Positions 12,691 through 57,192 of a stretch of 64,000 nt of DNA are shown piece by piece. The stretch comes from Minisyncoccota bacterium. GTDB lineage: Bacteria > Patescibacteriota > Minisyncoccia > Minisyncoccales > RBG-13-42-11. Under the pieces are notes generated by a model. That model was not told the origin of the DNA. It searched no databases and worked only from the letters and a program-made list of their open reading frames with translations. A program made the position numbers and the translations under genes. The first letter of the stretch is position 1, and each line of letters opens with the position of its first letter. The DNA lies in contig JADHYE010000001.1 of the NCBI GenBank assembly GCA_016782605.1, positions 11,128-75,127 of the forward strand, given 5' to 3'.

Positions 12691-13347
12691 TTATAATTTT
12701 CCAATTGATTTGCCGTATTTTCTCCTCCAGGCTTCTATCATTTTGTGATTACCCGAAACCAAAACTTTAGGTACCCGCCATTTCTGGAAAACTTCAGGCC
12801 TGGTGTATTGCGGATATTCCATAAATCCCTTTTCCTTAGTTATCCTTTCTTTCAATAAAGCAGGTTTGCCCAAAACTCCAGGTATTAACCTTGTTATGGT
12901 TTCCATAACTATCATTCCAGGCAACTCCCCTCCCATCAAGTCGTAGTCGCCAACTGACAACTCCATATCAGCAATGTGTTTGGCTACTCTTTCATCAACC
13001 CCTTCATACCGGCCGCAAATCATAATTATCTGGTTTAATTTTGACAACTGATAAGCTGTTTTCTGATTGAATTTCTTTCCCCGGGGAGTAAATAATATGA
13101 CTTTTGTTTTGCCTTTGCCTTTTATCTTTCTAACAGCTTTATATATGGACTCTACCTTCAAAACCATACCCAGCCCTCCGCCAAAAGGCCTATCATCAAC
13201 TGTTTTGCGCTGATCTTTGGCCCAGTCCCTCAAATTATGGACATTTATCTTAATCAATTTCTTTTCCCTGGCTTTCTTAATAAAAGACTCCTTCAGATAA
13301 GAATCGAATATTTGGGGAAAGATTGTAATAATATCAAATTTAAGCAT
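12691..13347 (-). CDS. trmD: tRNA (guanine37-N1)-methyltransferase
   Basis: 218 aa, TrmD-like throughout (MLKFDIITIFPQIF..., GGELPGM). Confidence 0.9.
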   Translation of the reverse strand: MLKFDIITIFPQIFDSYLKESFIKKAREKKLIKINVHNLRDWAKDQRKTVDDRPFGGGLGMVLKVESIYKAVRKIKGKGKTKVILFTPRGKKFNQKTAYQLSKLNQIIMICGRYEGVDERVAKHIADMELSVGDYDLMGGELPGMIVMETITRLIPGVLGKPALLKERITKEKGFMEYPQYTRPEVFQKWRVPKVLVSGNHKMIEAWRRKYGKSIGKL

Positions 13348-13348
13348 A

Positions 13349-13480
13349 CCCTGTATATCAACATCCAGGCATTTTCAATGCGAAAACACCCTGAAGATTG
13401 TCTTTATTTAATAATATATTTAACATAATAACTTTGTTTGAGATTTTAATACGAAGTATTCTGGATGTTGTATTACGGGG
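13349..13480 (-). mobile_element. family A element, copy A2
   Basis: 132 bp, flanked by cata at 13345-13348 and 13481-13484. 13347-13345 is the trmD ATG. Confidence 0.7.
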
Positions 13481-13544
13481 CATAAAAACAAAAACGGCCT
13501 ATTTTGAACAATAGCACCGTTTTTGCACTCTGTAAACTTAGAGT

Positions 13545-13856
13545 TTACAGTTTTAAATCTTCAATAGATTCAGACTTCCTTTCTCTCGTTGGCCTGCCGC
13601 CTTCTGGCTCTTCGATCTTCAAATTCACTCTTGCGTGATTTTTAAGACCGACAATTCTTACCAGATTTCTGATAGATCTGGCGGTAGAACCTTCTTTGCC
13701 GATAATCTGGCCCATGTCTTCAGGGTTCACTTTCAAAGAAAGCAGAACTCCCATCTCGTCAACCGTACGGTCAACTTTAACATCTCCAGGATTGTCGACT
13801 AAAGCTTTAATGAGATATTCAAGGAATTCTTTATCGTTTCCTTTTGTATCAGCCAT
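13545..13856 (-). CDS. KH-domain RNA-binding protein (KhpA/YlqC-like)
   Basis: 103 aa with a GxxG motif (IIGKEGSTARSIRNL). Conserved position between rpsP and trmD. Confidence 0.8.
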   Translation of the reverse strand: MADTKGNDKEFLEYLIKALVDNPGDVKVDRTVDEMGVLLSLKVNPEDMGQIIGKEGSTARSIRNLVRIVGLKNHARVNLKIEEPEGGRPTRERKSESIEDLKL

Positions 13857-13947
13857 AGTTCTTTCTGAGTTTTAGTAATTACTGATATTTATTCGTTTCT
13901 AGTAGCGCCGACCTTTCAATAAATCTGAAATGTAGCTACTGATTAGT

Positions 13948-13975
13948 ATTATATTCATTTGAACCATTTTGTCAA
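13948..13975 (-). promoter_or_regulatory. sigma70-like promoter TTGACA-N16-TATAAT
   Basis: -35 at 13975-13970 and -10 at 13953-13948 on the minus strand, upstream of the KH-domain gene. Confidence 0.6.
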
Positions 13976-13981
13976 GAAAAC

Positions 13982-14440
13982 TCATTTTTCAACTTCTTTT
14001 TTCTCTTTAACCTTCTCTTCTTTTTTCTCTTCGGCAGGTTCAGTTTTAATTTCTTCAACAGCCGCTTCAGCCGGCGCTACAACTTCAGCTTGTTTAGGCG
14101 AAGCCTCAACAGGTTTCTCAACAGGTTTCTCTTCGTGCCTCTCCGGCACATCCGCCGGAGAGGCGGACTTTTTTGATTTTTTATGCAAAGCAATCTTTTT
14201 CCCTTCAATGATTTTCTGAGAAATCAGCATATTATGGATGGTTTCAGAAGGATGGGCGCCGACTGAAATCCAGTATTTTATCCTTTCTGCCTTTAATTTC
14301 TTCTCTTTTGTCAAAGGATTATAAAAACCGACTTCTTCAATATATCTTCCTGAAGTCGAAGATTTCTCTTTTTCGACCACCACTATCTTGAATGATGGCT
14401 GATTCTTTTTTCCTGTTCTTAATAATCTAATAACTAACAT
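13982..14440 (-). CDS. rpsP: 30S ribosomal protein S16 with a Lys/Glu/Pro-rich C-terminal extension
   Basis: N-terminus MLVIRLLRTGKKNQPSFKIVV... is canonical S16. About 70 extra low-complexity residues follow. Confidence 0.9.
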   Translation of the reverse strand: MLVIRLLRTGKKNQPSFKIVVVEKEKSSTSGRYIEEVGFYNPLTKEKKLKAERIKYWISVGAHPSETIHNMLISQKIIEGKKIALHKKSKKSASPADVPERHEEKPVEKPVEASPKQAEVVAPAEAAVEEIKTEPAEEKKEEKVKEKKEVEK

Positions 14441-14447
14441 ATATATA

Positions 14448-15137
14448 TTACCAATGTTTGACTGCTAAAGCGTTTTTCGCTGCCTCAACTTCTGCTTCTT
14501 GTTTTGAAGATCCTTTGCCTTCGGCCACTAAATCCTTATCAAGGAAAACGCCGATAACGAAATTCTTTGCGTGATCCGGCCCGTGTTCTTTCAAAACTTT
14601 ATAGGTCGGAGTAATGCCCACTCTTTCTTGGGCTGCTTCCTGGAAAGTGGATTTAGCATCCCTGAAAAGACCTTTCTCAATGATTTCCGGCAATTTAACG
14701 ATTAAATTCTTTTTAATGAATTTTTCGCATGCTTTATAGCCTGAATCAAGGTAAGCTGAACCGATAAACGCTTCAAAAGTGTTGGCCAGGATATAATCCC
14801 TTGATTTGCCTGTTTCTTTCATTTCTCCTTTTGAAAGAAGCAAAAAATCATTAAAGCCCAATTCCTTAGCAACCTCAGCAAGCATTTTAGCATTAACCAG
14901 AGAAGCGCGCCAGTTGGTCAATTCGCCTTCCGGCTTTTTGGGATATTTGACAAAAAGGTGTTCGGTAATAATAAGTTCCAAAACCGCATCTCCCAAAAAT
15001 TCCAGTCTTTCATTGTTATCCAGATTGGCTTTCGGATTCTCGTTCAGATAGGAGCGATGGCAAAAAGCCTGAATCAATAAATCCTTGTTTTTGAATTTAA
15101 AATTTAATTGCTTTTCCAATATTGAAAAATCATTCAT
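14448..15137 (-). CDS. rnc: ribonuclease III
   Basis: Signature NERLEFLGDAVLE and a C-terminal dsRBD (..GSSKQEAEVEAAKNAL). Confidence 0.9.
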   Translation of the reverse strand: MNDFSILEKQLNFKFKNKDLLIQAFCHRSYLNENPKANLDNNERLEFLGDAVLELIITEHLFVKYPKKPEGELTNWRASLVNAKMLAEVAKELGFNDFLLLSKGEMKETGKSRDYILANTFEAFIGSAYLDSGYKACEKFIKKNLIVKLPEIIEKGLFRDAKSTFQEAAQERVGITPTYKVLKEHGPDHAKNFVIGVFLDKDLVAEGKGSSKQEAEVEAAKNALAVKHW

Positions 15138-15267
15138 ATACCGAGTCCGCCCAAGGCGGGCGAAGGTGAAGAAGAGGTTTACCTCTTCGACTTACTTTTC
15201 TAATACCGAGTCCGCCCAAGGCGGGCGAAGGTGAAGAAGAGGTTTACCTCTTCGACTTACTTTTCTA
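15138..15267 (-). repeat. perfect 65-bp tandem duplication (2 units) of a two-hairpin intergenic module that includes the nusB stop codon
   Basis: 15138-15202 and 15203-15267 are identical by eye. Each unit contains GTCCGCC-caa-GGCGGGC and GAAGAGG-ttta-CCTCTTC hairpins plus ..cttacttttcta (the last nusB codons). Confidence 0.8.
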
Positions 15268-15676
15268 ATTCTTTATAAACGGTCCCCAAAACGCCATTGA
15301 TAAACCTGCCAGAACTCTCTCCGCCAAAAGATTTAGCCAGCTCAATGGCTTCGTTAATAGCCACTTTTGGAGGAACCTCTTCTTTATTAGAATACAGTAA
15401 TTCAAAAAGTCCCATCCTCAGAATATTCCTGTCAACAACCGTTATCTGGCTTATCGGCCATTCAGGGGCTGCCTGTTCAATAATCTTATCCAGCTTTGAA
15501 AGGTGCTTAACTACTCCGGTAATTATCTGCCAGACCAGGCTTAAGTCCTCCAAACCAGGACCGAACTCTTTGATGTTCTTTTCAACTATCTTTTCCAAAT
15601 CATTTTTCCTGCCGCTAAAATCCCACTCGTAAAGAGACTGCATAGCAATACTTCTTGATAAATGACGACTAGCCAT
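15257..15676 (-). CDS. nusB: transcription antitermination factor NusB
   Basis: 139 aa, NusB-like ([14 protein letters not shown]..., [13 protein letters not shown]). Confidence 0.85.
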
Positions 15677-15693
15677 AATAAAATAACAATTAA

Positions 15694-15978
15694 CTATTTT
15701 TTGCTGAGACCTTCCCAGCTCAAAGGTTTTTTAGCTGAAGCTTTTTCATCCTTACCCTCAATCTCCTTTTCTTTCTTTTTTCTTGCTTTTCGGTCCAGCT
15801 TCTTTAAAACGTCAATCACTTCAACTCCCTTGTAATATCCGCAATTCAAACAAACAACGTGGGGCAAAACAGGTTTGCCGCATTTTACACACTTAGTTAA
15901 AACAGGCGCCTTTATGTGAATATGCATGCGGCGCTTGTTTCTTCTTGATTTGGTGTGTTTTTGTTTTGGAACAGCCAT
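15694..15978 (-). CDS. rpmF: 50S ribosomal protein L32 with a Lys-rich C-terminal extension
   Basis: [17 protein letters not shown]... and a zinc ribbon CVKCG...CLNCG. Confidence 0.8.
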
Positions 15979-15999
15979 ATCAATAAATATATTAACACA

Positions 16000-16626
16000 T
16001 CAATTAAATTTCTGCAATGGTTTAAAGGACATTCTGTGTATTTTACAGGGCCCGTGCTTTTTCAGTTGAATCTTGTGAAGCTTAGTGGGATATCCTTTGT
16101 GCTTATTAAAGCCGTACTTAGGATATTTTTTATCGTACCTGTCCATTATCCTGTCACGCGCCACTTTAGCAATAATTGAGGCGGCAGCGCAGGAAAACAC
16201 TTTATCGTCAGCTCCGACAATCAGCTTGTGATTAAAAGATTTCAGTTTATCAGAATTCAAATGGTTGCCGTCAACTAACAAAAAATCTGGTTTGAACTTC
16301 AAGCTCTTCAAGCTTTTCTCCATAGCCAGTTCAGCAGCGTTTTTAATATTAATTCTGTCAATCATACTTTCAGAAACCCTGCCTATCCCCCACCTGATAT
16401 TTTTATTCTTAGTCAAAAGCTTAAACAGTTTTTCTCTATTTTTAGAAGAAAGCTTTTTTGAATCTTTTACTTCCTGGAAAAGTTTTGAATCCAATGTCCT
16501 AACTAAAACTGCAGCTGCGGTCACGGGTCCTGCCAGAGGACCACGGCCTGCTTCGTCCAAGCCAACCACAAACTTAAAGCCCTTTTTACGTAATCTTCTC
16601 TCTTCTTGAAAAAATCCTTGTTTCAT
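16000..16626 (-). CDS. rnhB: ribonuclease HII
   Basis: GLDEAGRGPLAGPV motif. Start moved to Met-39 of the track ORF (16626), because the upstream part overlaps dnaE. Confidence 0.85.
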   Translation of the reverse strand: MKQGFFQEERRLRKKGFKFVVGLDEAGRGPLAGPVTAAAVLVRTLDSKLFQEVKDSKKLSSKNREKLFKLLTKNKNIRWGIGRVSESMIDRINIKNAAELAMEKSLKSLKFKPDFLLVDGNHLNSDKLKSFNHKLIVGADDKVFSCAAASIIAKVARDRIMDRYDKKYPKYGFNKHKGYPTKLHKIQLKKHGPCKIHRMSFKPLQKFN

Positions 16627-16656
16627 AATATACTTAGATAATACTAACACAAAGTC

Positions 16657-19600
16657 ATGAAATTTACCCAGCACCACTTTCCAAAGGAAAAATCTATTCC
16701 CCAAGAAAAAGCCACAAAAAGTGGTGCGGTGTTTACTCATTTACACGTCCACTCCCACTACAGCCTATTGGATGGCTTACCGAAAATCGACCAACTTTTG
16801 GATTACGTAAAAGAACTGGGCATGGACTCTGTCGCTATCACTGACCACGGCAACATCTACGCTGCCGTGGAGTTTTATAAGAAGGCAAAAGAAAAAGGCA
16901 TAAAGCCGATTATCGGATGCGAGATGTATACGGCCCTTGAAAAGATGGCTGACAAAAGGCCAAATATTGACGACAAAAGACACCACCTTGTTTTATTGGT
17001 TAAAAACGAAAAGGGCTACAAGAATTTGGTAAAACTGATAACTAAAGCCCACTTGGACGGATTCTATTATAAGCCGAGGATCGACGATGAACTGCTCAGC
17101 CAATATTCCGAAGGCCTTATCGGCCTTTCTGCTTGTTTGGCCGGAAAAATACCAAAACTGATTCTGGCAAAAAAAATGGAAGAAGCTGAAAAAGTCGCCA
17201 AAAATTATCAGAAGATTTTTGGAAAAGATAATTTTTATCTTGACATACAGCACCATCCCAATTCCGCTGACCAAAAAACAGCAAACAAAGGATTAATCGA
17301 GCTTTCCAAAAAAACAGGCATTCCCTTGGTCGCTACCAATGACGTCCATTACTTGAGACCGGAAGACTCTGATGCCCAAGACATATTAATGTTAATCAAT
17401 ACAGGTTCTGACCCCAATGATCCTGAAAGATTAAGCTTGAAAATGGATGACTTTTCAATGAGAAGCCCGGAACAAATGGCAAAAGATTTCAAAGATCTGC
17501 CGGAAGCCATTGAAAACACGCAGAAAATCGCTGACCTTTGCAACTTCCAATTTGAACTGGATAAAGTAAAGCTTCCCCAATTTGCCGTACCAACCGGAGA
17601 AGATCCGAATACGTATATAGAAAAACTCTGCCAAAAAGGGCTGACTTCAAAATTCGGGGAAAAACCGGAAAAAGAAGTTATTGAAAGGATGAATTACGAA
17701 CTTTCCGTAATCAAACAAACAGGCTTTACTTCATATTTTTTAATTGTCCAGGATTTTGTCAACTGGGCCAAAGAAAACAGAATTGTTGTCGGGCCTGGCC
17801 GGGGCAGCGTCGGCGGATCTTTGGTCGCCTATCTTCTAAATATTACCAATATTGACCCTTTAAAGTACGATCTTTTATTTGAAAGATTTTTGAATCCGGA
17901 AAGAATTTCCATGCCTGATATTGATTTAGATTTTACAGACAGAAGAAGGGACGAAGTGATCCAGTATGTCAGCCAAAAATACGGCCGGGACAAAGTGGCC
18001 CAGATCATAACATTCGGGACCATGGCAGCCAGAGCAGTAGTCAGGGATGTTGGCAGAGCCATGGGACAACCTTACAGCTTTTGCGATCAGATTGCTAAAA
18101 TGATTCCTTTCGGCATGACGCTTGATGAAACGATGAAAAAAGTAAGCGAATTCAGTTCTTTATATGAATCAGACCAAGAAGCTAGAAAACTGATTGACGC
18201 TGCCAAAAAGTTGGAAGGAGTGGCCCGCCACGCCTCAACCCATGCCTGCGGAGTGGTAATCTCAAATACTCCTTTGGACGAAATCGTGCCTCTGCAGCAC
18301 CCTACCCAGAATGACCAAAACATTGTCACCCAGTATGAAATGCATTCTATTGAAGACTTGGGAATCTTGAAAATGGACTTTTTGGGATTGAAAAACCTGA
18401 CCATTATTGAAGACACCCTTTCCAGAATCTACGTCATTCATGGAACAAACCTTAATATTGAAAAGATTCCGACAGACGACAAAAAAACATACAAGCTTTT
18501 TCAAACCGGAGGAACAGTCGGCGTATTCCAGCTTGAGTCGGACGGCATGAGAAGATATCTAAAACAATTAAAGCCGACTGAGTTCGAAGACATTATTGCC
18601 ATGGTAGCGCTTTACCGCCCTGGCCCGATGCAGTTAATTCCCGACTATATCAGCAGAAAAAACAAAAAACAGAAAATAGAATACTTCCATCCTAAGTTGA
18701 AACCGATCCTGGAGAAAACCTACGGCATTGCCGTTTATCAAGAACAGATTATGCGAATCGCCAAAGATATGGCAGGATTCACATTAGCTGAAGCTGACGT
18801 TCTCAGAAAGGCAATCGGCAAAAAGATAAAAGAGCTTTTAATGTCTCAAAAGGAAAAATTCATAGCAGGAATGAAAAAAAACGAGATAAGCGAAAACATT
18901 GCCCAGCAAATCTGGTATTGGATTGAACCTTTCGCCAGCTACAGTTTTAACAGAAGCCATGCTGCTGCCTATGCCACTATCGCCTATCAGACAGCTTATT
19001 TGAAAACCCACTTCCCTGCAGAATTCATGTCGTCTCTTCTGACTTCAGAGAGAAACGATATTGAAAGAATCGCTGTCTTGATCGAAGAATGCAAGAAAAT
19101 GGGCCTGACCGTTCTGCCGCCGGATATAAATGAAAGTTTCACCTTTTTCAGCGTGGTGCCGAAAAAGAACCAGATAAGATTCGGGCTTTCAGCGATTAAA
19201 AATGTCGGTTCTAATATCGTGGAAGTGGTGGTCAATGAAAGAAAAGCAAACGGCCCTTTCATTTCAATCGATGATTTCCTTACCAGAACCAGCTCAAGAG
19301 ATCTCAATAAGAAGTCTTTGGAGAGTTTAATAAAAACCGGAGTTTTTGATAAAATGGCAGAAAGAAACCAGATGCTCTCTAACATTGAAAAGATTCTGGA
19401 ATACGCCAGAGAAAGCCAAAAAACCAAGACTAACGGCCAGACAGGCCTGTTTGACGGAATGAGTTTTAACAACCATATTCATTTGCCAGACACTACCCCA
19501 GCTTCGGAAAAAGAAAGATTGACCTGGGAAAAGGAACTGCTGGGACTCTTTATCAGCTCCCATCCTTTAAACGGATTCGAAAAGCTCCTGGAAAAGAAAG

Positions 19601-33575: not shown

Positions 33576-33870
33576 AGTGGTAATACCTAATTAAGTCGCG
33601 GCTCGCGCATATTATATATTAATATATTGCCTTCGGCGAATGTGCTACTGCCGCTCTTTAGAAGACGAACGCAGTGAGGCGGGAAAAAAGATTTATCTCT
33701 TTGACCACTCTCGGTGCTCAATGAAGCTAAAGCTTCATTTCGGTCTGCGCTTCCGTGAACGGAAGCTTGCCTTCTAACGTTTTCCACCTCATCGGCGGAA
33801 ATCCTGTTTTCCTATACGGAAGAACCTGATGGTTCTTCCGACCCATCTCCGATATGGGATACTATTACGT
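33576..33870 (-). repeat. composite structured leader repeat F2, directly upstream of the rplK ATG
   Basis: Shares the start-proximal block with F1 and F3, block 33651-33739 with F1, and block 33807-33868 with F3 (57726-57787). Confidence 0.6.
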
Positions 33871-34939: not shown

Positions 34940-36871
34940 CTAAATGTCTAAATTCTTAACGCCTTTGGCATGCGTCTGGATGAATTTCTTTCGGGGCAGC
35001 ACTTCATCTCCCATCAAGATATCGAAAATTCTGTCAGCTTCCTTGACATCTTCAATATCTACCCTTAATAAAGTCCTTTTTTCAGGATTCATGGTGGTTT
35101 CCCAAAGCTGATCCGGATTCATTTCTCCCAAACCCTTGTATCTTTGTATCGAAACATTCAAGATTTTCTCTTTCTTCAATTTCATTAAAACCTTGTCTTT
35201 TTCCTCTTCGGTATATGCATATTCTATCTTTTTGCCTGACTGTAAACGGTAAAGAGGAGGCTGAGCAATATATATGAAGCCTTTTTCAATCAGCAGCTTG
35301 AAATAGCGGTAAAAAAGAGTTAAAAGAAGAGTTCTTATATGGGAACCGTCAACATCAGCATCAGTCATTATAATAATGCGGTGGTATCTGGCCTTTTCAA
35401 TTTTAAAATCATCAGCCACTGCCGTACCCAAAGCAATGATCAATGATTTTATCTCTTTGGAAGAAAGCATCTTGTCCAGACGGGCGCGCTCAACATTCAA
35501 TATCTTTCCCCTTAAAGGCAGAATAGCCTGGAATCTTCTGTCCCTAGCCTGGCGAGAACTGCCGCCAGCTGACTCACCCTCAACTATGTAAAGTTCTGAG
35601 TCTTCGGGATTTCGAGAACTGCAGTCAGCCAATTTGCCCGGCAAAGCCAATCCCTCTAATGCTCCCTTGCGCAAAACAGTCTCACGCGCCACCCTAGCTG
35701 CTTTCCTGGCTTTTGAAGAAAGAATACATTTTTCAATAATCGCCCGGGCATCCTGCGGATTCCTTTCCAAAAAATCAGTCAGGGTTTCCGAAACAACTGC
35801 TTCCACTGCTGTTTTGGCCTCAGGATTACCTAACTTTGCTTTGGTCTGTCCTTCAAATTGCGGCTCTTTGATTTTTACGGAAACCACGCCGGTAAATCCC
35901 TCTCTGACGTCTTCACCCGACAAATTCTCATCGCTTTCTTTAAGAATGCCGTTCTTTTTGGCGTAATCGTTAAAAGTCCTGGTTAAAGCGGTTCTAAAGC
36001 CGGTCAAGTGATTTCCCCCCTCTCCGGTAAAAATGTTATTGGCAAAACTTTCTTCAAAACATTCATATTCTTCAGTATATTGGAAAGCTGCCTCAACCAG
36101 AATTCCTTCTTTTTCCCCGATACCGTAATAGATATTGGGATGGCGCTTAACCACGTCTCTGGTCAGATATTTGACGTATGAAGACAGTCCGCCCTCAAAA
36201 TAAAAAGCGTAGAACTTTTCCGGTTTTTCCCTTTGGTCAATGGCAGTGATTCTTATCTTTTTTGTCAGGTAAGCCTGCTGCCTGAGATGTTTCAGAATCT
36301 TATTAAAATCGAATTTGATTTCGCTGAATATCTCAGGATCCGGTTCAAAGTAAACCGTGGTGCCTGTCTGCCTGCATTTGCCGTCTTTTTTAACGGCTGT
36401 TTTAGGCTTTCCTTTGGCATATTCCTGGCAATACCTAATGTTATCTCGGCAGACTTCAACCCTCATCCATTTTGAAAGCGCGCAGACCACGGAAACTCCC
36501 ACGCCGTGCAAACCGCCAGCCACCTGGTAAGCTTTGCCTCCGAATTTAGCTCCGGCATGCAATGTTGTCATTACGGTTTCCAAAGCTGATTTTTTAGTTT
36601 GCCAGTGCCTTTCAACCGGAATTCCCCTGCCATCGTCAGTTGTCTTCACTTTGTTGCCTGGCGAAAGAATAACTTCAATGTTTTTTGCATGCCCGGCCAT
36701 TGCCTCATCCAAACTGTTATCAATGCATTCCCAAATCAAATGATGAAGTCCCTCTGGACCGGTTGAACCGATATACATGCCGGGCCTTTTCCTGACAGGA
36801 TCAAGGCCTTCCAAAACATAAATGTCTTTGGCAGTATAATCTTTTTCAGTTTTTTTAGGTTTTTGTAGCAT
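34940..36871 (-). CDS. gyrB: DNA gyrase subunit B
   Basis: GHKL ATPase and TOPRIM (EGESAGGS) domains. The ORF-track start (36898) runs into repeat A3. ATG at 36871 gives MLQKPKKTEKDYTAKDIYVLEGL.... Confidence 0.95.
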   Translation of the reverse strand: MLQKPKKTEKDYTAKDIYVLEGLDPVRKRPGMYIGSTGPEGLHHLIWECIDNSLDEAMAGHAKNIEVILSPGNKVKTTDDGRGIPVERHWQTKKSALETVMTTLHAGAKFGGKAYQVAGGLHGVGVSVVCALSKWMRVEVCRDNIRYCQEYAKGKPKTAVKKDGKCRQTGTTVYFEPDPEIFSEIKFDFNKILKHLRQQAYLTKKIRITAIDQREKPEKFYAFYFEGGLSSYVKYLTRDVVKRHPNIYYGIGEKEGILVEAAFQYTEEYECFEESFANNIFTGEGGNHLTGFRTALTRTFNDYAKKNGILKESDENLSGEDVREGFTGVVSVKIKEPQFEGQTKAKLGNPEAKTAVEAVVSETLTDFLERNPQDARAIIEKCILSSKARKAARVARETVLRKGALEGLALPGKLADCSSRNPEDSELYIVEGESAGGSSRQARDRRFQAILPLRGKILNVERARLDKMLSSKEIKSLIIALGTAVADDFKIEKARYHRIIIMTDADVDGSHIRTLLLTLFYRYFKLLIEKGFIYIAQPPLYRLQSGKKIEYAYTEEEKDKVLMKLKKEKILNVSIQRYKGLGEMNPDQLWETTMNPEKRTLLRVDIEDVKEADRIFDILMGDEVLPRKKFIQTHAKGVKNLDI

Positions 36872-46035: not shown

Positions 46036-47112
46036 TTAAAATAATCTGGCAACGTCTTTTATCGTCACCAAAACCATTAATAAAAGTAATAAACTGAAAA
46101 ATACAGCTGTTATGTTCTGCTCCACTTTTTCGCTAATCGGCCTTCTCCTGATAGCTTCAATCCCCAGAAATAATATCTTGCCTCCGTCAACTGCTGGAAT
46201 GGGCAGAATATTGAAAATAGCGATATAAATGGCCACTATGCCGACAAATTGCAGAAAATAATTCGTTCCCATCTGGCTAGCCTGAGTAAAAAGATGAACG
46301 ACCCCTACCGGACCCATCAGTTCAACTCCCGAAGACTGGCCTTGAACAATATTGCTTATCACTTGGCCGTAACCTTTAATTATTGCTCCTGTCATATTAA
46401 CCGTTGCCACCAATCCCTGCCAAGGAGCCTGGTACCAGGAAAAAGACTGCATTGCTGTTCTGACTAAAGCTACGCCCAAAGGACCTTCTCCTGCTGGCGG
46501 CGAAACTCGAGGTACGACTTTGACGTCAAAAACTTCATTCCCCCTTTCAACCGTCAAAACAATCTCTTCTCCTAAATGAGTATTACTGAACTCCTGCACT
46601 TCCCGTATTTTACCAACAGCCAATTGCTCCTCGCTAATTGCCATTCCTTTTATCGTATCCCCAGGTTGTAAGCCAGCAAGTTTTGCCGGAGAGCCAGCAG
46701 AAATGCTAGCAATCTGCACTCTTGGATTAACTAAACCAGAAGCTTCATCGTCTACAGCCACTGCTGTTCCTAAATTGAAAACAATAGCAAATAGAATTGC
46801 TGCCACTATCCAAAAAGAAAGCACTCCGGCAAAAGCAATTAAAGCCCTTTTCCAGACAGCCTGACCTGAAAAACTGCGAGGGTCATTTACCTGACCTATT
46901 TCGCCCGGCATTTTTACGAAAGCACCTAGGGGCAGAAGATTTAAAGAATAAATAGTATCGCCAATTTTTTTTCCGAATATCCTGGGAGGGAAACCTATGC
47001 CAAATTCTTCAACTTTTACTCCGAATTTCTTTGCTACGATAAAATGGCCGAATTCGTGAAGAGTTACTAGCCCTATTAAGCTTAAAGAAGCGATAAGAAT
47101 TGTTAAAAACAT
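46036..47112 (-). CDS. rseP: site-2 (RseP-type, M50) zinc metalloprotease
   Basis: HEFGHF motif, PDZ-like segment, several TM helices. Confidence 0.85.
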   Translation of the reverse strand: MFLTILIASLSLIGLVTLHEFGHFIVAKKFGVKVEEFGIGFPPRIFGKKIGDTIYSLNLLPLGAFVKMPGEIGQVNDPRSFSGQAVWKRALIAFAGVLSFWIVAAILFAIVFNLGTAVAVDDEASGLVNPRVQIASISAGSPAKLAGLQPGDTIKGMAISEEQLAVGKIREVQEFSNTHLGEEIVLTVERGNEVFDVKVVPRVSPPAGEGPLGVALVRTAMQSFSWYQAPWQGLVATVNMTGAIIKGYGQVISNIVQGQSSGVELMGPVGVVHLFTQASQMGTNYFLQFVGIVAIYIAIFNILPIPAVDGGKILFLGIEAIRRRPISEKVEQNITAVFFSLLLLLMVLVTIKDVARLF

Positions 47113-47113: not shown

Positions 47114-47245
47114 CCCTGTATATCAACATCCAGGCATTTTCAATGCGAAAACACCCTGAAGATTGTCTTTATTTAATAATATATTTAACATAATAACTTT
47201 GTTTGAGATTTTAATACGAAGTATTCTGGATGTTGTATCACGGGG
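47114..47245 (-). mobile_element. family A element, copy A5
   Basis: 132 bp, flanked by cata at 47110-47113 and 47246-47249. 47112-47110 is the rseP ATG. Confidence 0.7.
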
Positions 47246-47249: not shown

Positions 47250-47810
47250 TTATTCTGATATTTCTTTTTTCTTATTCTCTCCCATTTCTTCTATCTTTTT
47301 ATTGTAATCGTCAACCAACTCCTGAAGCTCGTCTTTAGCCCGGAACTTGTCATCCTCCCTGATTTCTCCCTGTTTTGTTTTATCCTGGATTTCACTCCAA
47401 ACCTCTTCCCTCCACTTTCTAATAGTCCTTCTTGACTGTTCTTCTTTTTCCGCAATGGTCCTGGTTAAATTCTTCCTGTATTCTTCGTTCAAAGGCGGCA
47501 AATTAATCCTGACTGCATCCTTGTCAACAATTGGATTAGCGCCGATTCCCGTCTTTTCCAAAGCTGAAACAATGCCTTCGATATAAGACTTATCCCAAGG
47601 CTGAATTAAAATCTGCTTTGCCTCAGGTGTAGAAATGGCAGCCAATTGTTTTAAAGGAAACTTCTGGCCGAAACAGTCAACAACAACATCCTCCACCAAA
47701 GAAGGCGTTGCCCTGCTGGTACGAATCTTATTCATTTCCTTTTCTAAAAAGCCGATTACCTTGTCTAATTCCGGTTTAATATTTTGAATGATTGTTTTGT
47801 AGCTATCCAT
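47250..47810 (-). CDS. frr: ribosome recycling factor
   Basis: 186 aa, Frr-like throughout (..IRTSRATPSLVE..). Confidence 0.95.
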   Translation of the reverse strand: MDSYKTIIQNIKPELDKVIGFLEKEMNKIRTSRATPSLVEDVVVDCFGQKFPLKQLAAISTPEAKQILIQPWDKSYIEGIVSALEKTGIGANPIVDKDAVRINLPPLNEEYRKNLTRTIAEKEEQSRRTIRKWREEVWSEIQDKTKQGEIREDDKFRAKDELQELVDDYNKKIEEMGENKKKEISE

Positions 47811-47811: not shown

Positions 47812-47943
47812 CCCTGTGTATCAACATCCAGGCATTTTCAATGCGAAAACATCCTGAAGATTGTTTTTATTTAATAATATATTTAACATAATAACTTTGT
47901 TTGAGATTTTAATACGAAGTATTCTGGATGTTGTATTACGGGG
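47812..47943 (-). mobile_element. family A element, copy A6
   Basis: 132 bp, flanked by cata at 47808-47811 and 47944-47947. 47810-47808 is the frr ATG. Confidence 0.7.
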
Positions 47944-52192: not shown

Positions 52193-52264
52193 CCAGGTAG
52201 TGAAAATTCAACCACTGCCGCGGCAGTGAAAAAAATAATAATTTGTCGAATTTCTACTACCTAG
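52193..52264 (+). mobile_element. family B element, copy B3 (inverted relative to B1 and B2, matching its plus-strand gene)
   Basis: 72 bp, flanked by tatg at 52189-52192 and 52265-52268. 52266-52268 is the ATG of the 52266-53570 gene. Confidence 0.7.
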
Positions 52265-52265
52265 T

Positions 52266-53570
52266 ATGACCAAAAAGACAAAAACAATACTGTTTTTAGC
52301 CTGCTTACTTGCATTCATCCTGTTAGCTCCCTCAATAGTCCTGTACTCCCAAGGATACAGAATTGATTTTAATCCTCCAGAAGGCGGAAAAATGATTACC
52401 CAAACCGGAGGCCTTTTTTTGAAAGTCACGCCCAAACAAACAGATATTTATATTGACGGCAAACCTAAAAAAAGAACTGATTTTCTATTCGGTTCTGTTT
52501 TAATTGAAAACCTCATTCCTGGAAAGTACAAAGTAGAAATCAAAAAATTAACCAGCCAGGAAGAATACTATCCCTGGGAGAAAAACCTGGAAATACGGGA
52601 AAAACAGGTAACTGAAGCCAAGAACGTTGTCCTTTTCCCGAAAAACGTTAATTTCAACGTCTTATCAACCAACGTAGAACAGCTTTGGCTTTCTCTGGAC
52701 CAAAAGAAACTAATCTTAAAGGAAAATGAAAAAGCCAGCTGGTCCTTAAAGCTTTACGACCCGGAAAAGAATATAAAAAGCTATTTAATAAGCGACGAGG
52801 ATTTCTTCACGAAAGAACCCCAATTAATCAATCTGAAATTCTCGGGAGACTCAAGAAGTATTAATCTGGAAGTCAGCATAAAAGAAGCAATACAATCTTT
52901 TTCTCTGCAACTTGACCAAGCAAAACCAACTTTAAATAAAAAAACAGCAGCCACAACGACAACTGGAAACGCTGCTATCTCGCAACAAGCAGGCAATGAT
53001 ATATATTATCTGGACAGTTTCGGCTATCTTTTCAGGAATAAAGAAAAGCTGGCAGAAACTCCCTTTCAAACAAAACAAGAAACAGAATATGCTTTAGATA
53101 TTTTCAACGGCAACATATTCTTAAAAGAAAACGACAAACTGTACAAATTCAATTACAATCTGAAAACATTTGAACATTTCTTTGACGGAATCAATATCTT
53201 AAAGCTTTCTCCGGACAATAAAAAACTGCTTTACGCTTCAAACAATGAAATGTGGATTCTTTTCCTGGAAGACAAAATCGACCAGCCGCAGAAAAAATCA
53301 GGAGAGAAAATCTTTTTAATCCGCTTATCAGACCAAATCACAAGCATCTCCTGGATAAACGACAATTACCTGGCTTTTCTTGCCGGCAATACCGTTAAAA
53401 TCATTGAAATAGACGACAGGGACAGAATAAACGTTATAGACATCTTTGAAACAAAAAACCTCCCTCAAGAAGGAAGCATTAATGAAATGTCCTGGAACAG
53501 GTTTGACAATAAAATCTATCTCTTGGACGAAAACGGCTATTTATATAGCTCTAACGTCCTGCTCCCGTAA
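52266..53570 (+). CDS. hypothetical membrane-anchored protein with a PEGA-like domain and a C-terminal propeller-like region
   Basis: 434 aa. N-terminal TM helix, and TDIYIDGKPKKRT...PGKYKVEIKK resembling PEGA. Confidence 0.5.
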   Translation: MTKKTKTILFLACLLAFILLAPSIVLYSQGYRIDFNPPEGGKMITQTGGLFLKVTPKQTDIYIDGKPKKRTDFLFGSVLIENLIPGKYKVEIKKLTSQEEYYPWEKNLEIREKQVTEAKNVVLFPKNVNFNVLSTNVEQLWLSLDQKKLILKENEKASWSLKLYDPEKNIKSYLISDEDFFTKEPQLINLKFSGDSRSINLEVSIKEAIQSFSLQLDQAKPTLNKKTAATTTTGNAAISQQAGNDIYYLDSFGYLFRNKEKLAETPFQTKQETEYALDIFNGNIFLKENDKLYKFNYNLKTFEHFFDGINILKLSPDNKKLLYASNNEMWILFLEDKIDQPQKKSGEKIFLIRLSDQITSISWINDNYLAFLAGNTVKIIEIDDRDRINVIDIFETKNLPQEGSINEMSWNRFDNKIYLLDENGYLYSSNVLLP

Positions 53571-54269
53571 TTTGATTTTCTTTTTAAAAGCTTCCCAGCC
53601 CATTTCTCCGGTATTGGCTATAACGCAAACTTCCTTGAACTGGCAATAACGACACTGCCAATTATCGGGGTAATCCGATAATCTGTCGGGAATAACGTTC
53701 TTATCAATCTTCTTTCTAATACCAGCCAAAAAGTCCAAAAGAGAAAGGGCGCATTTTTTATCGTATTTTACGACAAAATCCTTCAGCTGCTGGTTATCTT
53801 TATTAACGTAAAGCAGTATTCCTTTAGGAATCTTAAAATAATGGAGATAAAGCTGAAGCTGAGCAATATTTTCCTCCTTTGGCTCAGTTAACTTACCAAA
53901 AATCATGCTGTTCATACTTTTAATATCCAAAACATATAGTTCCTTGCCATCGCTGATTATGGCATCAGCCCTGCCTGAAATCAGTTCCTGAGGAGGAATA
54001 TTAACTTCGGCAGCCACCACATGGATTTCCCTGGTGCTCAAAAGCGGCTTCATAATAAGCTGATGGATGTGGTCGCCATGGTCAAACAGCCTTAGAATAT
54101 TGGCCTCCATCTCCTTTCTGGGAACATTCTTGAACTTAAAAAACAAAGCTCTGCCGCATTTGCCTGCGTCAGTAATATAAAAGTGATGCTGCTCTTTATC
54201 TCTTTGCCTGTCCAAATAGAATTTATCGATTATATCTTTAAGAAACATAGAGTTTATCTCTTCTGCCAC
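53541..54269 (-). CDS. PD-(D/E)XK nuclease with a Cas4-like 4-Cys arrangement
   Basis: One N-terminal Cys (DAGKCGRA), a D..DIK catalytic-type motif, QLQLY, and C-terminal CRYCQFKEVC (Cx2Cx5C). Confidence 0.6.
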   Translation of the reverse strand: MAEEINSMFLKDIIDKFYLDRQRDKEQHHFYITDAGKCGRALFFKFKNVPRKEMEANILRLFDHGDHIHQLIMKPLLSTREIHVVAAEVNIPPQELISGRADAIISDGKELYVLDIKSMNSMIFGKLTEPKEENIAQLQLYLHYFKIPKGILLYVNKDNQQLKDFVVKYDKKCALSLLDFLAGIRKKIDKNVIPDRLSDYPDNWQCRYCQFKEVCVIANTGEMGWEAFKKKIKLREQDVRAI

Positions 54270-54739
54270 TGAGGAGCACGACGAGCGCGCTTCAATCCGA
54301 ACTTCTTTCTTTCCCTCATCCTCGGGTCTCTTTTCAAAAAACCAGCTTTTTTCAACTGTTTCCTCAATTCTGGATCGAATAAAACTAAAGCGCGAGTTAA
54401 ACCGTGCCTGACAGCTTCAGCCTGGGAAGTCGTCCCTCCCCCTTTAACTTTTACTGAAACCTGAAATTTGTCAGAATAATCAGTCAAAATCAAAGGAGAA
54501 AAAATAATACGCTGAAGGTATTTTGTCGGAAAATAATTTTCAAAAGTCCTTGTATTTATTAAAAAGGTCTTTTCTTTTTGAACAGAAATTCTCACCCTGG
54601 CTACAGCTGTCTTTCTCCTGCCTATGCCCTCAAAATACCTGGCTACTTTAGGTTTAACTGTTACTTTGGCAGTTTTTTTAGCTGGAGCTTTTTTGACTTT
54701 CTTTACTGTTTCTTTTTTTGTTTTTTTAGCCTTTGGCAT
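54254..54739 (-). CDS. rpsI: 30S ribosomal protein S9 with a Lys-rich N-terminal extension
   Basis: C-terminus ..RERKKFGLKRARRAPQWQKR is canonical S9. The ORF-track start (54760) runs into repeat A7. ATG at 54739 gives MPKAKKTKK... Confidence 0.9.
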   Translation of the reverse strand: MPKAKKTKKETVKKVKKAPAKKTAKVTVKPKVARYFEGIGRRKTAVARVRISVQKEKTFLINTRTFENYFPTKYLQRIIFSPLILTDYSDKFQVSVKVKGGGTTSQAEAVRHGLTRALVLFDPELRKQLKKAGFLKRDPRMRERKKFGLKRARRAPQWQKR

Positions 54740-54740
54740 A

Positions 54741-54872
54741 CCCCGTATATCAACATCCAAGCATTTTCAATGCGAAAACACTCTGAAGGCTGTTTTTATT
54801 TAATAATATATTCAACATAATAACTTTGTTTGATATTTTAATACGAAGTATTCTGGATGTTGTATTACAGGG
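54741..54872 (-). mobile_element. family A element, copy A7
   Basis: 132 bp, flanked by cata at 54737-54740 and 54873-54876. The rplM stop codon (54867-54865) lies inside the element. Confidence 0.7.
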
Positions 54873-55215
54873 CATATTTTAATCTTTTAATCATTTTTGC
54901 TCTTAATTTATTCTTGGGCAGCATGCCAAAAACCGCTTTCCTCAAAACTTCTTCCGGATTCTTCTCAAATAACTTCTCCAAAGTTATCTCCTTCAAGCTT
55001 CCCAGATATCCAGAATGACGGTAGTATTTCTTCTGTTTGGCTTTTTTGCCGGTGAATTTCAACTTATCAACGTTTTGGACAATAACAACATCGCCGATAT
55101 CTTTGTACGGCGCAAAGTCTGCTTTCTGTTTCCCCCTCAAAAGCAAAGCTATTTCAACAGCCAGTCTGCCTAAAACCTTATCAGTAGCGTCTATTTTGTG
55201 GGTTTTGCGTTCCAT
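54865..55215 (-). CDS. rplM: 50S ribosomal protein L13
   Basis: 116 aa, L13-like (..VLGRLAVEIALLLRGK..). The last residues (..YAL*) are encoded by TATG plus element A7. Confidence 0.9.
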   Translation of the reverse strand: MERKTHKIDATDKVLGRLAVEIALLLRGKQKADFAPYKDIGDVVIVQNVDKLKFTGKKAKQKKYYRHSGYLGSLKEITLEKLFEKNPEEVLRKAVFGMLPKNKLRAKMIKRLKYAL

Positions 55216-55217
55216 AG

Positions 55218-55568
55218 TTATTTAACCAATTCTATTATGGCTATTTTGGCAGCATCTACTTTTCTTTGGCCAAGCTTAATAATCCTGGTATATCCTCCTT
55301 TTCTTTCTTTGAATCTCGGGGCGATCTCATCAACCAATTTCTTAACCACTTTTCCAGTAAAAAACTTTGCCAATAATCTGCGCGAAGCCAAAGTGCCGAC
55401 TTTCGCTTTGGTAATCTTTTTTTCAACGAAAGAGGAAACCTCTTTTGCCTTAGCTTCTGTTGTTTTAACTTTTTCTTTCAATATCAAAGCAGCAGCTAAA
55501 GATCTTAAAAGAGCGTTTCTTTGGTCTTTTTCCCTATTTAGTTTTTTCCCTTTTTTTCTTTTTCTCAT
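55218..55568 (-). CDS. rplQ: 50S ribosomal protein L17
   Basis: 116 aa with ..GYTRIIKLG.R..D.A..A.IEL typical of L17. Confidence 0.9.
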   Translation of the reverse strand: MRKRKKGKKLNREKDQRNALLRSLAAALILKEKVKTTEAKAKEVSSFVEKKITKAKVGTLASRRLLAKFFTGKVVKKLVDEIAPRFKERKGGYTRIIKLGQRKVDAAKIAIIELVK

Positions 55569-56364
55569 TTTTTACTTTTTTGCTTACTGCTTTCTTTTCT
55601 TTTTTCGGCTTCTTGGCCGCTTTTTTCTTTTCTTTGTCTTCCGGTTCTACAGATGCAGCTTTCGGCTGGAAAGCTGTAGCCAGCAACGAAAAGTGGCTAA
55701 TCAAAATTTCCGAAGCCTGATAAAATGCCTGTTCCGGATCGATAATGCCGTCTGTTTCAATTTCCAGAAACAATCTGTCAAAGTCAGTTCTTTCTCCGAC
55801 ACGCATATTCTCAACCCTGGAACTTACCCTTTTTACAGGAGTAAAGCTGGCATCCAGCAGAATAGCTCCTATCTCTAATTTTTCAGGCATGGAGCCTGCT
55901 GTTTTTTTCCTTGTTTCGCGGCTGGAATAGCCAATTCCCTTTTCAATCTGGATTTCCATTTCCAGTTCAGCGGATTTTGAATTCAAAGTGGCAATATGGC
56001 AGTTTTTATTTACCAATTCCACTTGGCTGGGCAGCTTGAAATCAAAGCCCTTCACTGCTTTTTCTCCCTTAACTTTCAGGGTCGCTTTCTGTGGCTCGTC
56101 GCTAAAAAGCTTAAATCTCAATTGCTTCAAATTAAGCATTATAGTGATAACGTCTTCTAAAACTCCTGAAATCGTTGAGAACTCATGGGAAACTCCCTTG
56201 ATTTTGACTTGGGTAATAGCAGCTCCTTCAAGCGAAGAAAGCAAAACCCTTCTCAAAGAATTGCCGACGGTTACTCCGTAGCCAGGACGCAAAGCTTCTA
56301 TTTCAAAAACAGCTTTGTTCCCTTCTTTTTTAACTATTTTGGGAGCGTGAGGTAAATTAATCAT
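55534..56364 (-). CDS. rpoA: DNA-directed RNA polymerase alpha subunit, N-terminal domain only, plus a Lys-rich tail
   Basis: About 235-aa alpha-NTD (..GNSLRRVLLSSL..) followed by a ~40-aa KKEK-rich tail. No alpha-CTD-like sequence. Confidence 0.9.
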   Translation of the reverse strand: MINLPHAPKIVKKEGNKAVFEIEALRPGYGVTVGNSLRRVLLSSLEGAAITQVKIKGVSHEFSTISGVLEDVITIMLNLKQLRFKLFSDEPQKATLKVKGEKAVKGFDFKLPSQVELVNKNCHIATLNSKSAELEMEIQIEKGIGYSSRETRKKTAGSMPEKLEIGAILLDASFTPVKRVSSRVENMRVGERTDFDRLFLEIETDGIIDPEQAFYQASEILISHFSLLATAFQPKAASVEPEDKEKKKAAKKPKKEKKAVSKKVKNEKKKKREKTK

Positions 56365-56422
56365 ATAGCGAGTCCCGCAACAACGGGACGAAGGTTAAGA
56401 AGAGGATGAATTCCTCTTCGAT
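56365..56422 (-). repeat. two-hairpin intergenic module related to the nusB-rnc unit
   Basis: atagcgaGTCCCGcaacaaCGGGACgaaggttaaGAAGAGGatgaattCCTCTTCgattta fills the whole rpsD-rpoA spacer. Same architecture as 15138-15202 with different stem sequences. Confidence 0.6.
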
Positions 56423-57052
56423 TTATTTTGAGTAAAACTCGAAAATTGCGGAGAGTTCTGCCGGTGGGACAGCCTCTTCTAAATTTGGTGAATCGATGAC
56501 CTTTGCCTCCAGCTTCTCAGCGTCTAATTTGAGCCAAGACGGAGGATTATATTTTTTTAAAGTAGATGATAATTTCTGGAAAATTGTTTTTTTTAAAGAA
56601 TTGGGGTTAACGCTTATTTTGTCCCCTTTCTTAACCAGATAGCTGGAAATATTAATCGGCCTGTCGTTAACCATAAGATGGCTGTGGGAAACCATTTGTC
56701 TGGCAGCAAATTTGGAAGGAGCGAAACCTAATCTGAAAACTACATTGTCCAAGCGGCTCTCCAAAGTTTTAATTAAAGCAGCGCCGGCATCCGTCACCTT
56801 TCCCCTGGCCTTTAAAATATCTTTGACGTAGTTCCTGAATTGCTTCTCTTCCAAATTATACCAGTTCTTTAATTTTTGTTTTTCCCTTAATTCTTTACCG
56901 TATTCAGAAAGCGATTTCACTCTTTTTTTAGCTTTTGGCCCTGGCGGATAAGGTTTTTTGATCATTGGGCATTTCTGCGATGAGCACCTTTCGCCTCTCA
57001 AAAAAAGCTTAATTCCTGCACGACGGCAAATTTTGCATTTAGAAACATTCAT
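56423..57052 (-). CDS. rpsD: 30S ribosomal protein S4
   Basis: 209 aa with an N-terminal zinc-ribbon-like CKICRR..C segment and an S4 domain. Confidence 0.95.
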   Translation of the reverse strand: MNVSKCKICRRAGIKLFLRGERCSSQKCPMIKKPYPPGPKAKKRVKSLSEYGKELREKQKLKNWYNLEEKQFRNYVKDILKARGKVTDAGAALIKTLESRLDNVVFRLGFAPSKFAARQMVSHSHLMVNDRPINISSYLVKKGDKISVNPNSLKKTIFQKLSSTLKKYNPPSWLKLDAEKLEAKVIDSPNLEEAVPPAELSAIFEFYSK

Positions 57053-57053
57053 A

Positions 57054-57185
57054 CCCTGTATATCAACATCCAGGCATTTTCAATGCGAAAATATCCTGAA
57101 GGCTGTCTTTATTTAATAATATATTTAACATAATAACTTTGTTTGATATTTTAATACGAAGTATTCTGGATGTTGTATTACAAGG
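57054..57185 (-). mobile_element. family A element, copy A8
   Basis: 132 bp, flanked by cata at 57050-57053 and 57186-57189. 57052-57050 is the rpsD ATG. Confidence 0.7.
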
Positions 57186-57192
57186 CATAAGT

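Follow-up and report, generated by a model that had tools for sequence, protein, structure and literature searches.

Repeats on start codons of a Minisyncoccota genome as probable derivatives of very small elements encoding a GIY-YIG nuclease

A stretch of 64,000 nt from contig JADHYE010000001.1 of a Minisyncoccota bacterium (positions 11,128 to 75,127, hereafter the window) carries hairpin-forming repeats placed exactly on the start codons of its genes. A preliminary description made from the sequence alone had noted that a duplicated upstream ATG opens a reading frame that spans the repeat and stops 10 nt before the true start. This raises the question of what these repeats are, why they carry such a frame and how they are tolerated where they lie. 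Our answer, to which we give a probability of roughly 0.7, is that they are non-autonomous derivatives, resembling MITEs (transposable elements of the miniature inverted-repeat type), of very small elements of Patescibacteria that have a ~310-bp GIY-YIG parent, insert at start codons, are expressed from the host ATG and are moved by their nuclease. The frame appears to be the shell of the nuclease open reading frame (ORF), inherited by internally deleted copies and mostly decayed elsewhere.

The window contains 12 elements, all non-coding, which were sorted into eight A copies, three B copies and a single C copy (C1). All eight A copies lie on the minus strand, have the ends CCCCGTAATACAACATCCAG ... 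CTGGATGTTGATATACGGGG and are flanked on either side by a 4-bp direct repeat; a motif of the 3' arm, GGATGTTGATATACGGGG, occurs 10 times in the window against an expectation of 0.01. The geometry can be illustrated with A2, a 132-bp element (13349-13480) at the start of trmD (12691-13347), with TATG at both 13345-13348 and 13481-13484. Its upstream ATG (13483-13481) opens a 41-codon frame (13358-13483) that ends at a TGA in the right arm (13360-13358), leaving a 10-nt spacer (13357-13348) before the host ATG at 13347-13345. The same succession of 41 codons, arm TGA, 10 nt and host ATG was found in A4 (41791-41922, at the start of a 176-aa ORF, 41259-41789), A5 (47114-47245, at an M50 peptidase gene, 46036-47112), A6 (47812-47943, at frr, 47250-47810), A7 (54741-54872, at rpsI, 54254-54739) and A8 (57054-57185, at rpsD, 56423-57052), the spacing from ATG to ATG being 136 nt, or 1 modulo 3. 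A3 (147 bp, 36873-37019) lies on the start of gyrB (34940-36871) between AATG on the left and TATG on the right, and has a different interior, 15 bp longer, that places it in a widespread family of 146-152 bp. Its frame (36882-37022) has 46 codons (MPRNTTSSKVRSKQTPGITQMVVNMKLLSNNRLQAKTHLTAFGSGS) and ends in TAFGSGS at the same arm TGA, with the same 10-nt gap and an ATG-to-ATG spacing of 151. C1 (129 bp, 43327-43455, minus strand, arms CCCCGTTAGAAGTTTGC, duplication TGAA) occupies the ATGA overlap of gatC and gatA, and its 42-codon frame (43332-43460) ends at a TAA 4 nt before the GTG (43327-43325) with which gatA now begins, a codon re-created from the terminal G of the element plus TG.

The remaining copies depart from this plan in various ways. 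A1 (5021-5152, duplication TGAA), at the start of mltG/yceG (3993-5021), belongs to the A family with an insertion point 2 nt further in; here too the terminal G plus TG makes a GTG start for the gene, and the upstream frame is shifted and ends after 21 codons, 70 nt upstream. Among the B copies, the 70-bp hairpin at 5791-5860 (minus strand, arms CCAGGTAGTGAAAATTCGAC / GTCGAATTTCTACTACCTAG, duplication TATG) lies on the start of pcm (5154-5789) and its frame continues 22 nt out of frame into that gene. The copy at 52193-52264 is on the plus strand, co-oriented with the minority-strand gene that it precedes (52266-53570), and has a frame of 24 codons with a TAG 1 nt before the ATG. The third, at 59907-59979 (minus strand, start of ORF 58604-59905), has a stop codon that begins 23 nt and ends 20 nt upstream of the ATG. 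When recomputed, all of these frames agreed with the preliminary description, the exceptions that it had listed (A1 and two of the B copies) included, and so did its view that the peptide is unconstrained among the A copies: the seven of them other than A3 are 92-99% identical at seven genes, which is the multiplicity expected of a MITE, and their 16 variable sites are spread 6:3:7 over the codon positions.

That these are insertions was established from relatives. By its ribosome recycling factor (RRF) the organism is a Candidatus Pacebacteria MAG, and the syntenic contigs compared (L242 to L246) come from relatives with RRF identities of 95%, 89% and 85%. The positions of A3, A4, A5, A6, A7, A8, C1 and one B copy were found free of an element in relatives and have there a single TATG (ATGAA in the case of C1), which proves the 4-bp duplication and provides, at each of these sites, the target-site duplication against an empty site that is required of a MITE. 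The site is empty for A5 in L242, L243 and L244, for A6 in L242, L243 and L246, for A7 in L243, for A8 in L242 and L243 and for the B copy at 59907 in L243 (it is occupied in L246); the B insertion at 52193 is also present in L242. The start of frr has been struck independently by an A element in the window and a B element in L245, with L246 empty. The A, B and C copies are thus real and recent insertions exactly on start codons, and the single TATG of the empty sites bears out the earlier suggestion that the upstream ATG keeps the native initiation context of the gene. The hosts are mltG, trmD, gyrB, the 176-aa ORF, the M50 peptidase gene, frr, rpsI, rpsD, gatA and pcm, of which gyrB, frr, rpsD, rpsI, trmD and gatA are essential. 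At A4 the insertion also altered the C-terminus of the overlapping gatA (41915-41926), which ends in KLYGNN in the relative and in KLYAL in the window.

In order to find related elements, genomes were scanned with a 16-mer pattern, for which, among the matches listed, 10 of 120 loci were genuine and the rest mostly chance. These ten elements, from other Patescibacteria, have near-identical arms (CCCAGTAATACAACTTCCAG ... CTGGAAGTTGATATACTGGG), unrelated interiors and TATG-type duplications. A scan of metagenomes with a 20-mer of the arm gave 120 further loci, and after orientation scoring and de-duplication the total came to ~149 non-redundant elements at about 100 different genes, in size classes of 62-84, 126-166, 203-243 and 306-327 bp. 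The target duplication is generally 3-4 bp, nearly always includes a start codon and is most commonly TATG.

The largest class identified the parent. Translated from the duplicated ATG, the 306-327-bp elements encode a conserved protein of ~101 aa, MPSNTTSSVFFYVYVLESLKDGKRYIGYTNNLKRRLEEHKKGLSFSTKFRLPFKLIYFEGCLN.EDAKRRENYLKTTQGRRFLGLRL...AFGSGS, in the register ATG CCC AGT AAT ACA ACT TCC AG (MPSNTTSS), that is, the TATG register with the left copy of the ATG in frame. Among the intact A-type ORFs of 306-324 bp, 32 of 33 end at the arm TGA, 10 nt before the host ATG, and the first eight codons, the last four and the stop lie within the arms. The protein matches the Pfam GIY-YIG domain (PF01541, E=6e-17); its nearest relatives by sequence are UPF0213 proteins (BH0048 and EF2693; 1ZG2 at E=2.7e-7) and SLX1, and a Foldseek fold search likewise matched 1ZG2 and Slx1, the nearest structures being those of UPF0213 (1ZG2/1YWL) and Slx1. 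The domain match and the catalytic-type Tyr/Tyr/Arg/Glu residues, which are invariant (Y14, Y25, R35, E38 and E71), place it in the GIY-YIG superfamily, in its UPF0213/YhbQ-SLX1 branch. The gene is under purifying selection, with a dN/dS of ~0.09 and a diversity of 0.25/0.14/0.47 at the three codon positions. Third-position diversity is about six-fold lower in the arms (0.06-0.09) than in the interior (0.47), which indicates that in the arms the constraint acts on the DNA or RNA itself; the residues that the arms encode (1-7 and 98-102) are predicted to be disordered. As to recent transposition of a coding copy, the most similar pair at different sites is 89% identical and P0016 represents one and the same locus in every contig read, neither of which speaks for or against it. 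What the preliminary description missed is that the parent element uses the frame as a real protein-coding gene.

This gene is not confined to one type of arm. A search of 1.84 billion cluster representatives with the nuclease returned 979 clusters at E<=1e-10, and the protein is represented by at least 899 clusters (90% identity), which carry the annotation 'GIY-YIG nuclease family protein' or the mistaken one 'excinuclease ABC subunit C'. The best matches include P0246, which begins MPGSENSS, the translation of a B arm, and P0355, which begins MNPVR, a C arm in the ATGAA register. Coding versions with A, B and C arms thus exist, and the GIY-YIG nuclease, whose transposase activity is only putative, is the sole protein that they encode. 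In an element with B arms (L258), TATG|CCCGGTAGTGAAAATTCAAG ... TAA CTTGAATTTCTACTACCGGG|TATG, 21 nt separate the stop from the host ATG that follows. In one with C-like arms (L257), A[TGAA]TCCCGTTAGAGAT ... ATCTCTAACGGGA[TGAA]TGATG, the left duplication forms the ATG with which the ORF begins, and the TGA stop of the ORF is the right copy of the duplication itself, with the host ATG directly next. Internal start codons are lacking both in L258 and in L101, which has a fourth type of arm (CCCCGTACCACAG), and this leaves the duplicated ATG as the one place where their ORFs can begin. Elements of other clades (L261 and L262) have an ATG of their own after the left arm and end ...LTG plus TAA, with the TAA in the flank. 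The nuclease ORF takes up the entire element in at least four lineages of arms, the arms varying with the protein clade, and the termini CCCNGT...ACNGGG are common to all clades. These shared termini, together with the coding versions of the A, B and C arms, argue that all three families of the window descend from GIY-YIG elements of a single plan, in which the ORF runs from an ATG at the left junction to just before the regenerated host start. GIY-YIG genes of a related kind, each having an ATG of its own, were also seen inside tRNA genes, the 5' part of the tRNA being duplicated (L105, 2000-2800; L004, minus strand, 4600-5050); they seem to represent another type of mobile GIY-YIG element in these bacteria.

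The association with starts is stronger than the frequency of TATG at starts would give. With the elements removed in silico, TATG is present at the start of 46 of the 67 predicted window genes and at 40 other, non-coding TATG/CATA sites, which gives a baseline of 53%; the TATG-type insertions of the window lie on starts in 10 of 10 cases. Of the 88 ATG-type sites found beyond the window, 77 are followed by an ORF no shorter than 80 aa (p=5e-12 against the same 53%), and several of the remaining 11 are small genes such as that for L36. No sequence preference beyond (T)ATG was visible around the insertion sites. Whether intact or a relic, the ORF always points in the direction of the host gene. 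This includes the two cases on minority-strand genes, which are the only two informative on gene versus replication direction and both follow the gene. The preliminary description took the frame to explain this fixed orientation, an explanation that fails in that an A copy turned round would likewise present a frame that is open across the arm and ends early. As for the initiation regions, T at -1 of the start was found in 67% of the genes of the relatives (L242-L246) and in 54% of the genes of the metagenome loci of the Candidate Phyla Radiation (CPR), beyond the expectation from composition, and no Shine-Dalgarno-like (SD-like) enrichment of G was detected upstream of starts in the genes of the relatives. 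About half of Parcubacteria are reported to lack the anti-SD motif (PMC9297842).

A full element consists of two imperfect inverted arms of ~20 bp around its interior. As expected of terminal inverted repeats, 96.9% of arm positions pair, and compensatory double changes were seen at 7 of 17 pairs. At their centre a 3x3 mismatch, in which ATA faces ATA, hardly varies, and this asymmetry of the arms creates the TGA. Folded as RNA, A2 has a minimum free energy (MFE) of -34.6 kcal/mol (z -3.1; -2.6 as DNA) with the arms paired, and the UAUG duplications lengthen its stem, so that both AUGs are buried in the predicted fold. It is important to note that in the TATG register the upstream frame always crosses the entire left arm (at least 8 codons). 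We therefore propose, in explanation of the tolerance of such structures, that the SD-less, AU-rich initiation region of the host gene would recruit ribosomes to the upstream ATG, and that these ribosomes would unwind the left arm, open the stem and free the downstream AUG. In coding copies the nuclease would be made and the ribosomes would terminate beside the host AUG and reinitiate, while in decayed copies opening of the stem alone may suffice. The nuclease, as a relative of the structure-specific SLX1, would then mobilise the arm-bounded DNA. Because every upstream frame crosses the left arm, hairpin opening driven by ribosomes, with putative coupling, remains the best explanation of the tolerance. 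The preliminary hypothesis, that ribosomes translate through the hairpin, terminate and reinitiate, stands in so far as the predicted stem buries both AUGs and a stop beside the host start is built into the parents; the part that did not hold is that non-coding copies maintain the frame.

An account without translation would have the host gene expressed by a promoter that points outward from the right arm (TGnTATACT, ~5-7 nt upstream of the ATG, so that the mRNA would be leaderless), by a stem that places the native leader beside the AUG or by a cut with RNase III, the upstream frame never being translated. The canonical right arm, GTTGATATACTGGGTATG, does resemble an extended -10 box at a leaderless distance, the asymmetry of the arms makes both the TGA and this -10-like box, the window has a gene for RNase III (14448-15137) and decayed copies with early stops are tolerated. 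However, ~40% of the elements, most of the window A copies among them, have TATACG or TATACA and so lack the invariant final T, a promoter scan of the arms found nothing, the B and C arms are without such a box and many hosts are internal to operons, starting 1-8 nt after the preceding stop. We regard this account as very improbable.

Whether the open frame is itself selected, the host gene depending on ribosomes that read through the entire element, terminate at the TGA 10 nt upstream and then reinitiate, was examined with 66 non-coding elements (100-300 bp) on an ATG, grouped by interior into 31 families. In six of the 31 at least one member is open to the arm TGA, where 0.8 would be expected from shuffled interiors, and A, A3 and C1, with their unrelated interiors, each keep the frame open as far as a stop that is 4-10 nt from the host start, both of which speak for such selection. 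In this comparison with controls, a check that the preliminary description had named, openness across families is modestly enriched over shuffling, but reverse-complemented interiors already give three of 31. The other 25 families stop early, the ATG-to-ATG spacing is distributed 16:9:6 modulo 3 over the 31 families, and in the family of A3 eight of 17 copies are open, seven frameshifted and two interrupted by premature stops (two of the ten in-frame copies), so that the frame is not a feature kept in non-coding copies. Within the window the six A copies would all remain open 57% of the time if the same substitutions were placed at random, and since the six amount to one observation their openness is not beyond chance; the frame of A1, at mltG, already ends 70 nt short of the start. 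The open frame in the unrelated interior of A3, to which the preliminary description had drawn attention, is explained by descent, its terminus TAFGSGS resembling the KAFGSGS of the nuclease. The geometry of upstream-ORF coupling, with a start context and a stop a few nt from the next start, is found in A2-A8, C1 and the coding elements, and is absent from 25 of the 31 non-coding families. Openness is best read as inheritance from a coding parent with at most weak selection; selection for full read-through in non-coding copies is not supported, and we consider the stricter proposal quite unlikely. None of the 66 non-coding copies fuses its frame in frame to the host protein, which, together with the spacing of 1 modulo 3 and the stop before the host ATG, excludes an element of the Rickettsia palindromic element (RPE) type.

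Tandem arrangements were observed among the sampled loci, and one of them, the chain at L143 (minus strand, 0-700), which is open throughout, counts both for our reading and for a selected frame. In it three complete elements, a 309-bp coding one and then two 141-bp copies, stand head to tail before radA with single TATGs as joints, each frame open to its TGA, and a further copy of the 141-bp type, cut by the contig end, precedes them. Tandem copies are also present in L192, L121 and L240.

How the elements move is the least direct part of the argument. We tentatively suggest, at somewhat less than an even chance, that they constitute a new class of prokaryotic transposon whose sole protein, an SLX1/UPF0213-like GIY-YIG nuclease of ~100 aa, recognises the hairpin or cruciform of its own mismatched arms. 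At ~310 bp such an element would be smaller than any autonomous DNA element so far known, and one without initiation signals of its own, for which the target duplication would supply the start codon (in some clades the stop) and coupling would return the ribosomes to the host. The alternative is that the arms are recognised by a conventional transposase encoded elsewhere (IS5-, IS1380- or piggyBac-like, with a 4-bp duplication, YWWR-like targets and CC...GG ends), the GIY-YIG gene being a passenger or addiction module. In its favor, the short hairpin-only copies show the YWWR-like duplications TATG, CATG, CTTG, TAAA and TTAA, and we know of no GIY-YIG enzyme that catalyses transposition. Against it speak the nuclease ORF filling the element in at least four arm lineages with arms that follow the protein clade, the CCCNGT termini common to the clades, and the internal solo arms of the 120 metagenome loci, none of which leads into a larger, autonomous element (solo arms lie mostly at contig ends). 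We consider it unlikely. An IS200/IS605-type element (PATE) was rejected on the grounds of the proven 4-bp duplication and of arms that pair with each other, and no HUH gene was seen in the loci looked at for larger elements and related genes. A homing endonuclease gene was rejected on the grounds of the ~100 different insertion genes, the arms and the duplications.

Several observations weigh against our preferred reading, that the window repeats derive from nuclease elements expressed from the host ATG and moved by the nuclease. No GIY-YIG nuclease gene was found within the window, and no resemblance to that gene could be detected in the interior of the window A family, so that only the arms and the frame geometry point to its descent from such an element. 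The sample was seeded by one exact 20-mer and is biased toward A-type arms. The 25 early-stopping families end 24-221 nt before the host ATG and are nevertheless still on the starts of long genes. In the A-type ORFs codon 9 is ATG or GTG in 30 of 34, valine at this codon being GTG in 17 of 17 cases versus 28% elsewhere (p=3e-10), and the intact copies of L147 and L016, in the ATGA register, are able to start only at codon 9; because of this, A-type nucleases may start internally and perhaps do not need the host ATG. To our knowledge GIY-YIG enzymes are nucleases and not transposases. Translation of the upstream frame with reinitiation, and strand transfer by the nuclease, are steps that we infer from sequence. 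Lastly, the termini of the window A copies are decaying (CCTTG, CAGGG): their outermost bases change by transitions (CCCC to CCTT or CCCT, GGGG to AGGG), and half of the variable sites fall within the 40 nt of the arms. This terminal decay suggests that the window A copies are no longer mobilised.

A number of variants of the elements were noted in the survey. Two loci (L126 and L040) carry a 219-bp family in which the asymmetry of the arms is swapped, with ATATC in the left arm and AATAC in the right; its members lie on gene starts with the ORF relic still co-oriented with the gene, which suggests that the orientation of the asymmetry is not essential for movement. At L184 (minus strand, ~1124) a solo left arm that has no right partner is joined to the beginning of a membrane-protein-like ORF (MPSNTTSSRNYTLALIVIIAL...) and may be a domesticated N-terminal extension. 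The hairpin-only copies of 62-84 bp have CTTG, TAAA, CATG or TTAA duplications and lie away from gene starts. In L222, L124, L116, L215 and other elements of 62-78 bp, the right CTTG copy begins a -35-like box (TTGACA or TTGCAA) with a TATAAT-like box ~17 nt beyond, so that these mini-elements seem to be placed at the 5' edge of promoters instead of on start codons. That the duplication travels with the family and sets the next target was excluded, the 68-bp family having CTTG, TAAA, CATG and TTAA.

Some other repeats in the window and its relatives do not belong to these families. A GC-rich, highly structured insertion of ~150-300 nt lies 3 nt upstream of the ATGs of rpsK, rplK and rplJ (57643-57790, 33576-33870 and 3588-3740, minus strand); its copies share ...GCCGCGAC.TAATTAGGTATTACCA.TATGG and fold, as RNA, with an MFE of -55.6 kcal/mol for 160 nt. 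It is not present at the rpsM/rpsK junction of L242, L243 or L245 and has no match in Rfam. In a scan with Rfam 15 the window gave only tRNAs at the gathering score, and the A element nothing relevant at E<=1. Two tandem 65-nt repeats (15133-15262) lie directly upstream of the start of rnc, the RNase III gene, and a hairpin related to them, GCGAAGAGATAAATCTCTTC, occurs at 364-409 and 10883-10928, making a small repeat family near gene ends. Between rpsK and rpsD of L245 (950-1135) and L246 (3170-3356), AGAGTTTAAAT is duplicated around a hairpin-containing segment of ~60 nt that may be a further type of insertion near a start codon.

If the nuclease truly moves the element, GIY-YIG would join the DDE, DEDD, HUH, serine, tyrosine and Cas1 chemistries of prokaryotic transposases, in the smallest self-contained mobile element. 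Whatever moves them, the elements would represent a parasite made harmless yet expressed, one that duplicates the start codon, has its own gene read from the initiation region of the host and hands the ribosome back. The proposal would also explain strong hairpins on the start codons of 12 of the ~67 window genes, roughly one in five, and may explain many small UPF0213/YhbQ-like genes in other bacteria. In practice such elements break metagenome assemblies (a further record of the window's frr is a 679-bp contig whose end is close to the pair of elements flanking the gene) and mislead gene callers over start sites, and they offer a natural system for the study of SD-independent initiation and of reinitiation in CPR bacteria.

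By structural definition the window copies are MITEs, with a new target and a new parent. A search of the full-text literature found no published description of such elements, nor any link of UPF0213 proteins to inverted repeats or start codons; the peptides of the window elements had no match in Pfam, and viral contigs scanned for B and C arms contained none. A 2017 review of the classification of transposable elements mentions GIY-YIG only in homing endonucleases and Penelope-like retroelements (PMC5718144). The start-codon target, the strict orientation and the GIY-YIG parent gene set the window copies apart from Correia, RPE, ERIC and PATE repeats. The Correia elements of Neisseria (NEMIS/CREE) are similar in being repeats of 100-150 bp with terminal inverted repeats, short duplications and many copies, which are transcribed together with adjacent genes and form long RNA hairpins; they differ in that they duplicate TA, lie at variable distances from genes in both orientations and have no known coding parent, whereas here the start codon is the duplication, the orientation is fixed and the parent encodes a nuclease. 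The RPE are likewise palindromic repeats tolerated in essential genes of a reduced genome with respect for the frame, but they lie in frame inside ORFs and are translated as host protein, while the elements described here precede the ORF, out of frame (1 modulo 3) and with a stop. Homing endonuclease genes (I-TevI, T4 Seg) are also selfish and encode GIY-YIG proteins; those, however, have a DNA-binding domain, one cognate site and neither inverted repeats nor a duplication, in contrast to a bare catalytic domain of ~100 aa between arms. The UPF0213/YhbQ and SLX1 proteins, the best sequence and fold matches, are of the same single-domain size, although UPF0213 genes are treated as ordinary chromosomal genes of unassigned function. 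IS200/IS605 elements, PATE and IStrons resemble the present elements in their very small size, hairpin DNA, strict orientation beside a tetranucleotide and non-coding derivatives, and IStrons neutralise their own insertion. However, IS200/IS605 elements make no duplication and have separate subterminal hairpins and an HUH Y1 transposase, IStrons splice RNA, and neither uses the start codon of the host. The closest parallel for the translational side is termination-reinitiation coupling (ATGA and TGATG overlaps, 70S rescanning), in which the distance between the end of an upstream ORF and the following start is 0-21 nt and ribosomes would open a masking structure; the difference is that here the upstream ORF would have been imported by a mobile element, with a target duplication that supplies the start codon and, in some clades, the stop.

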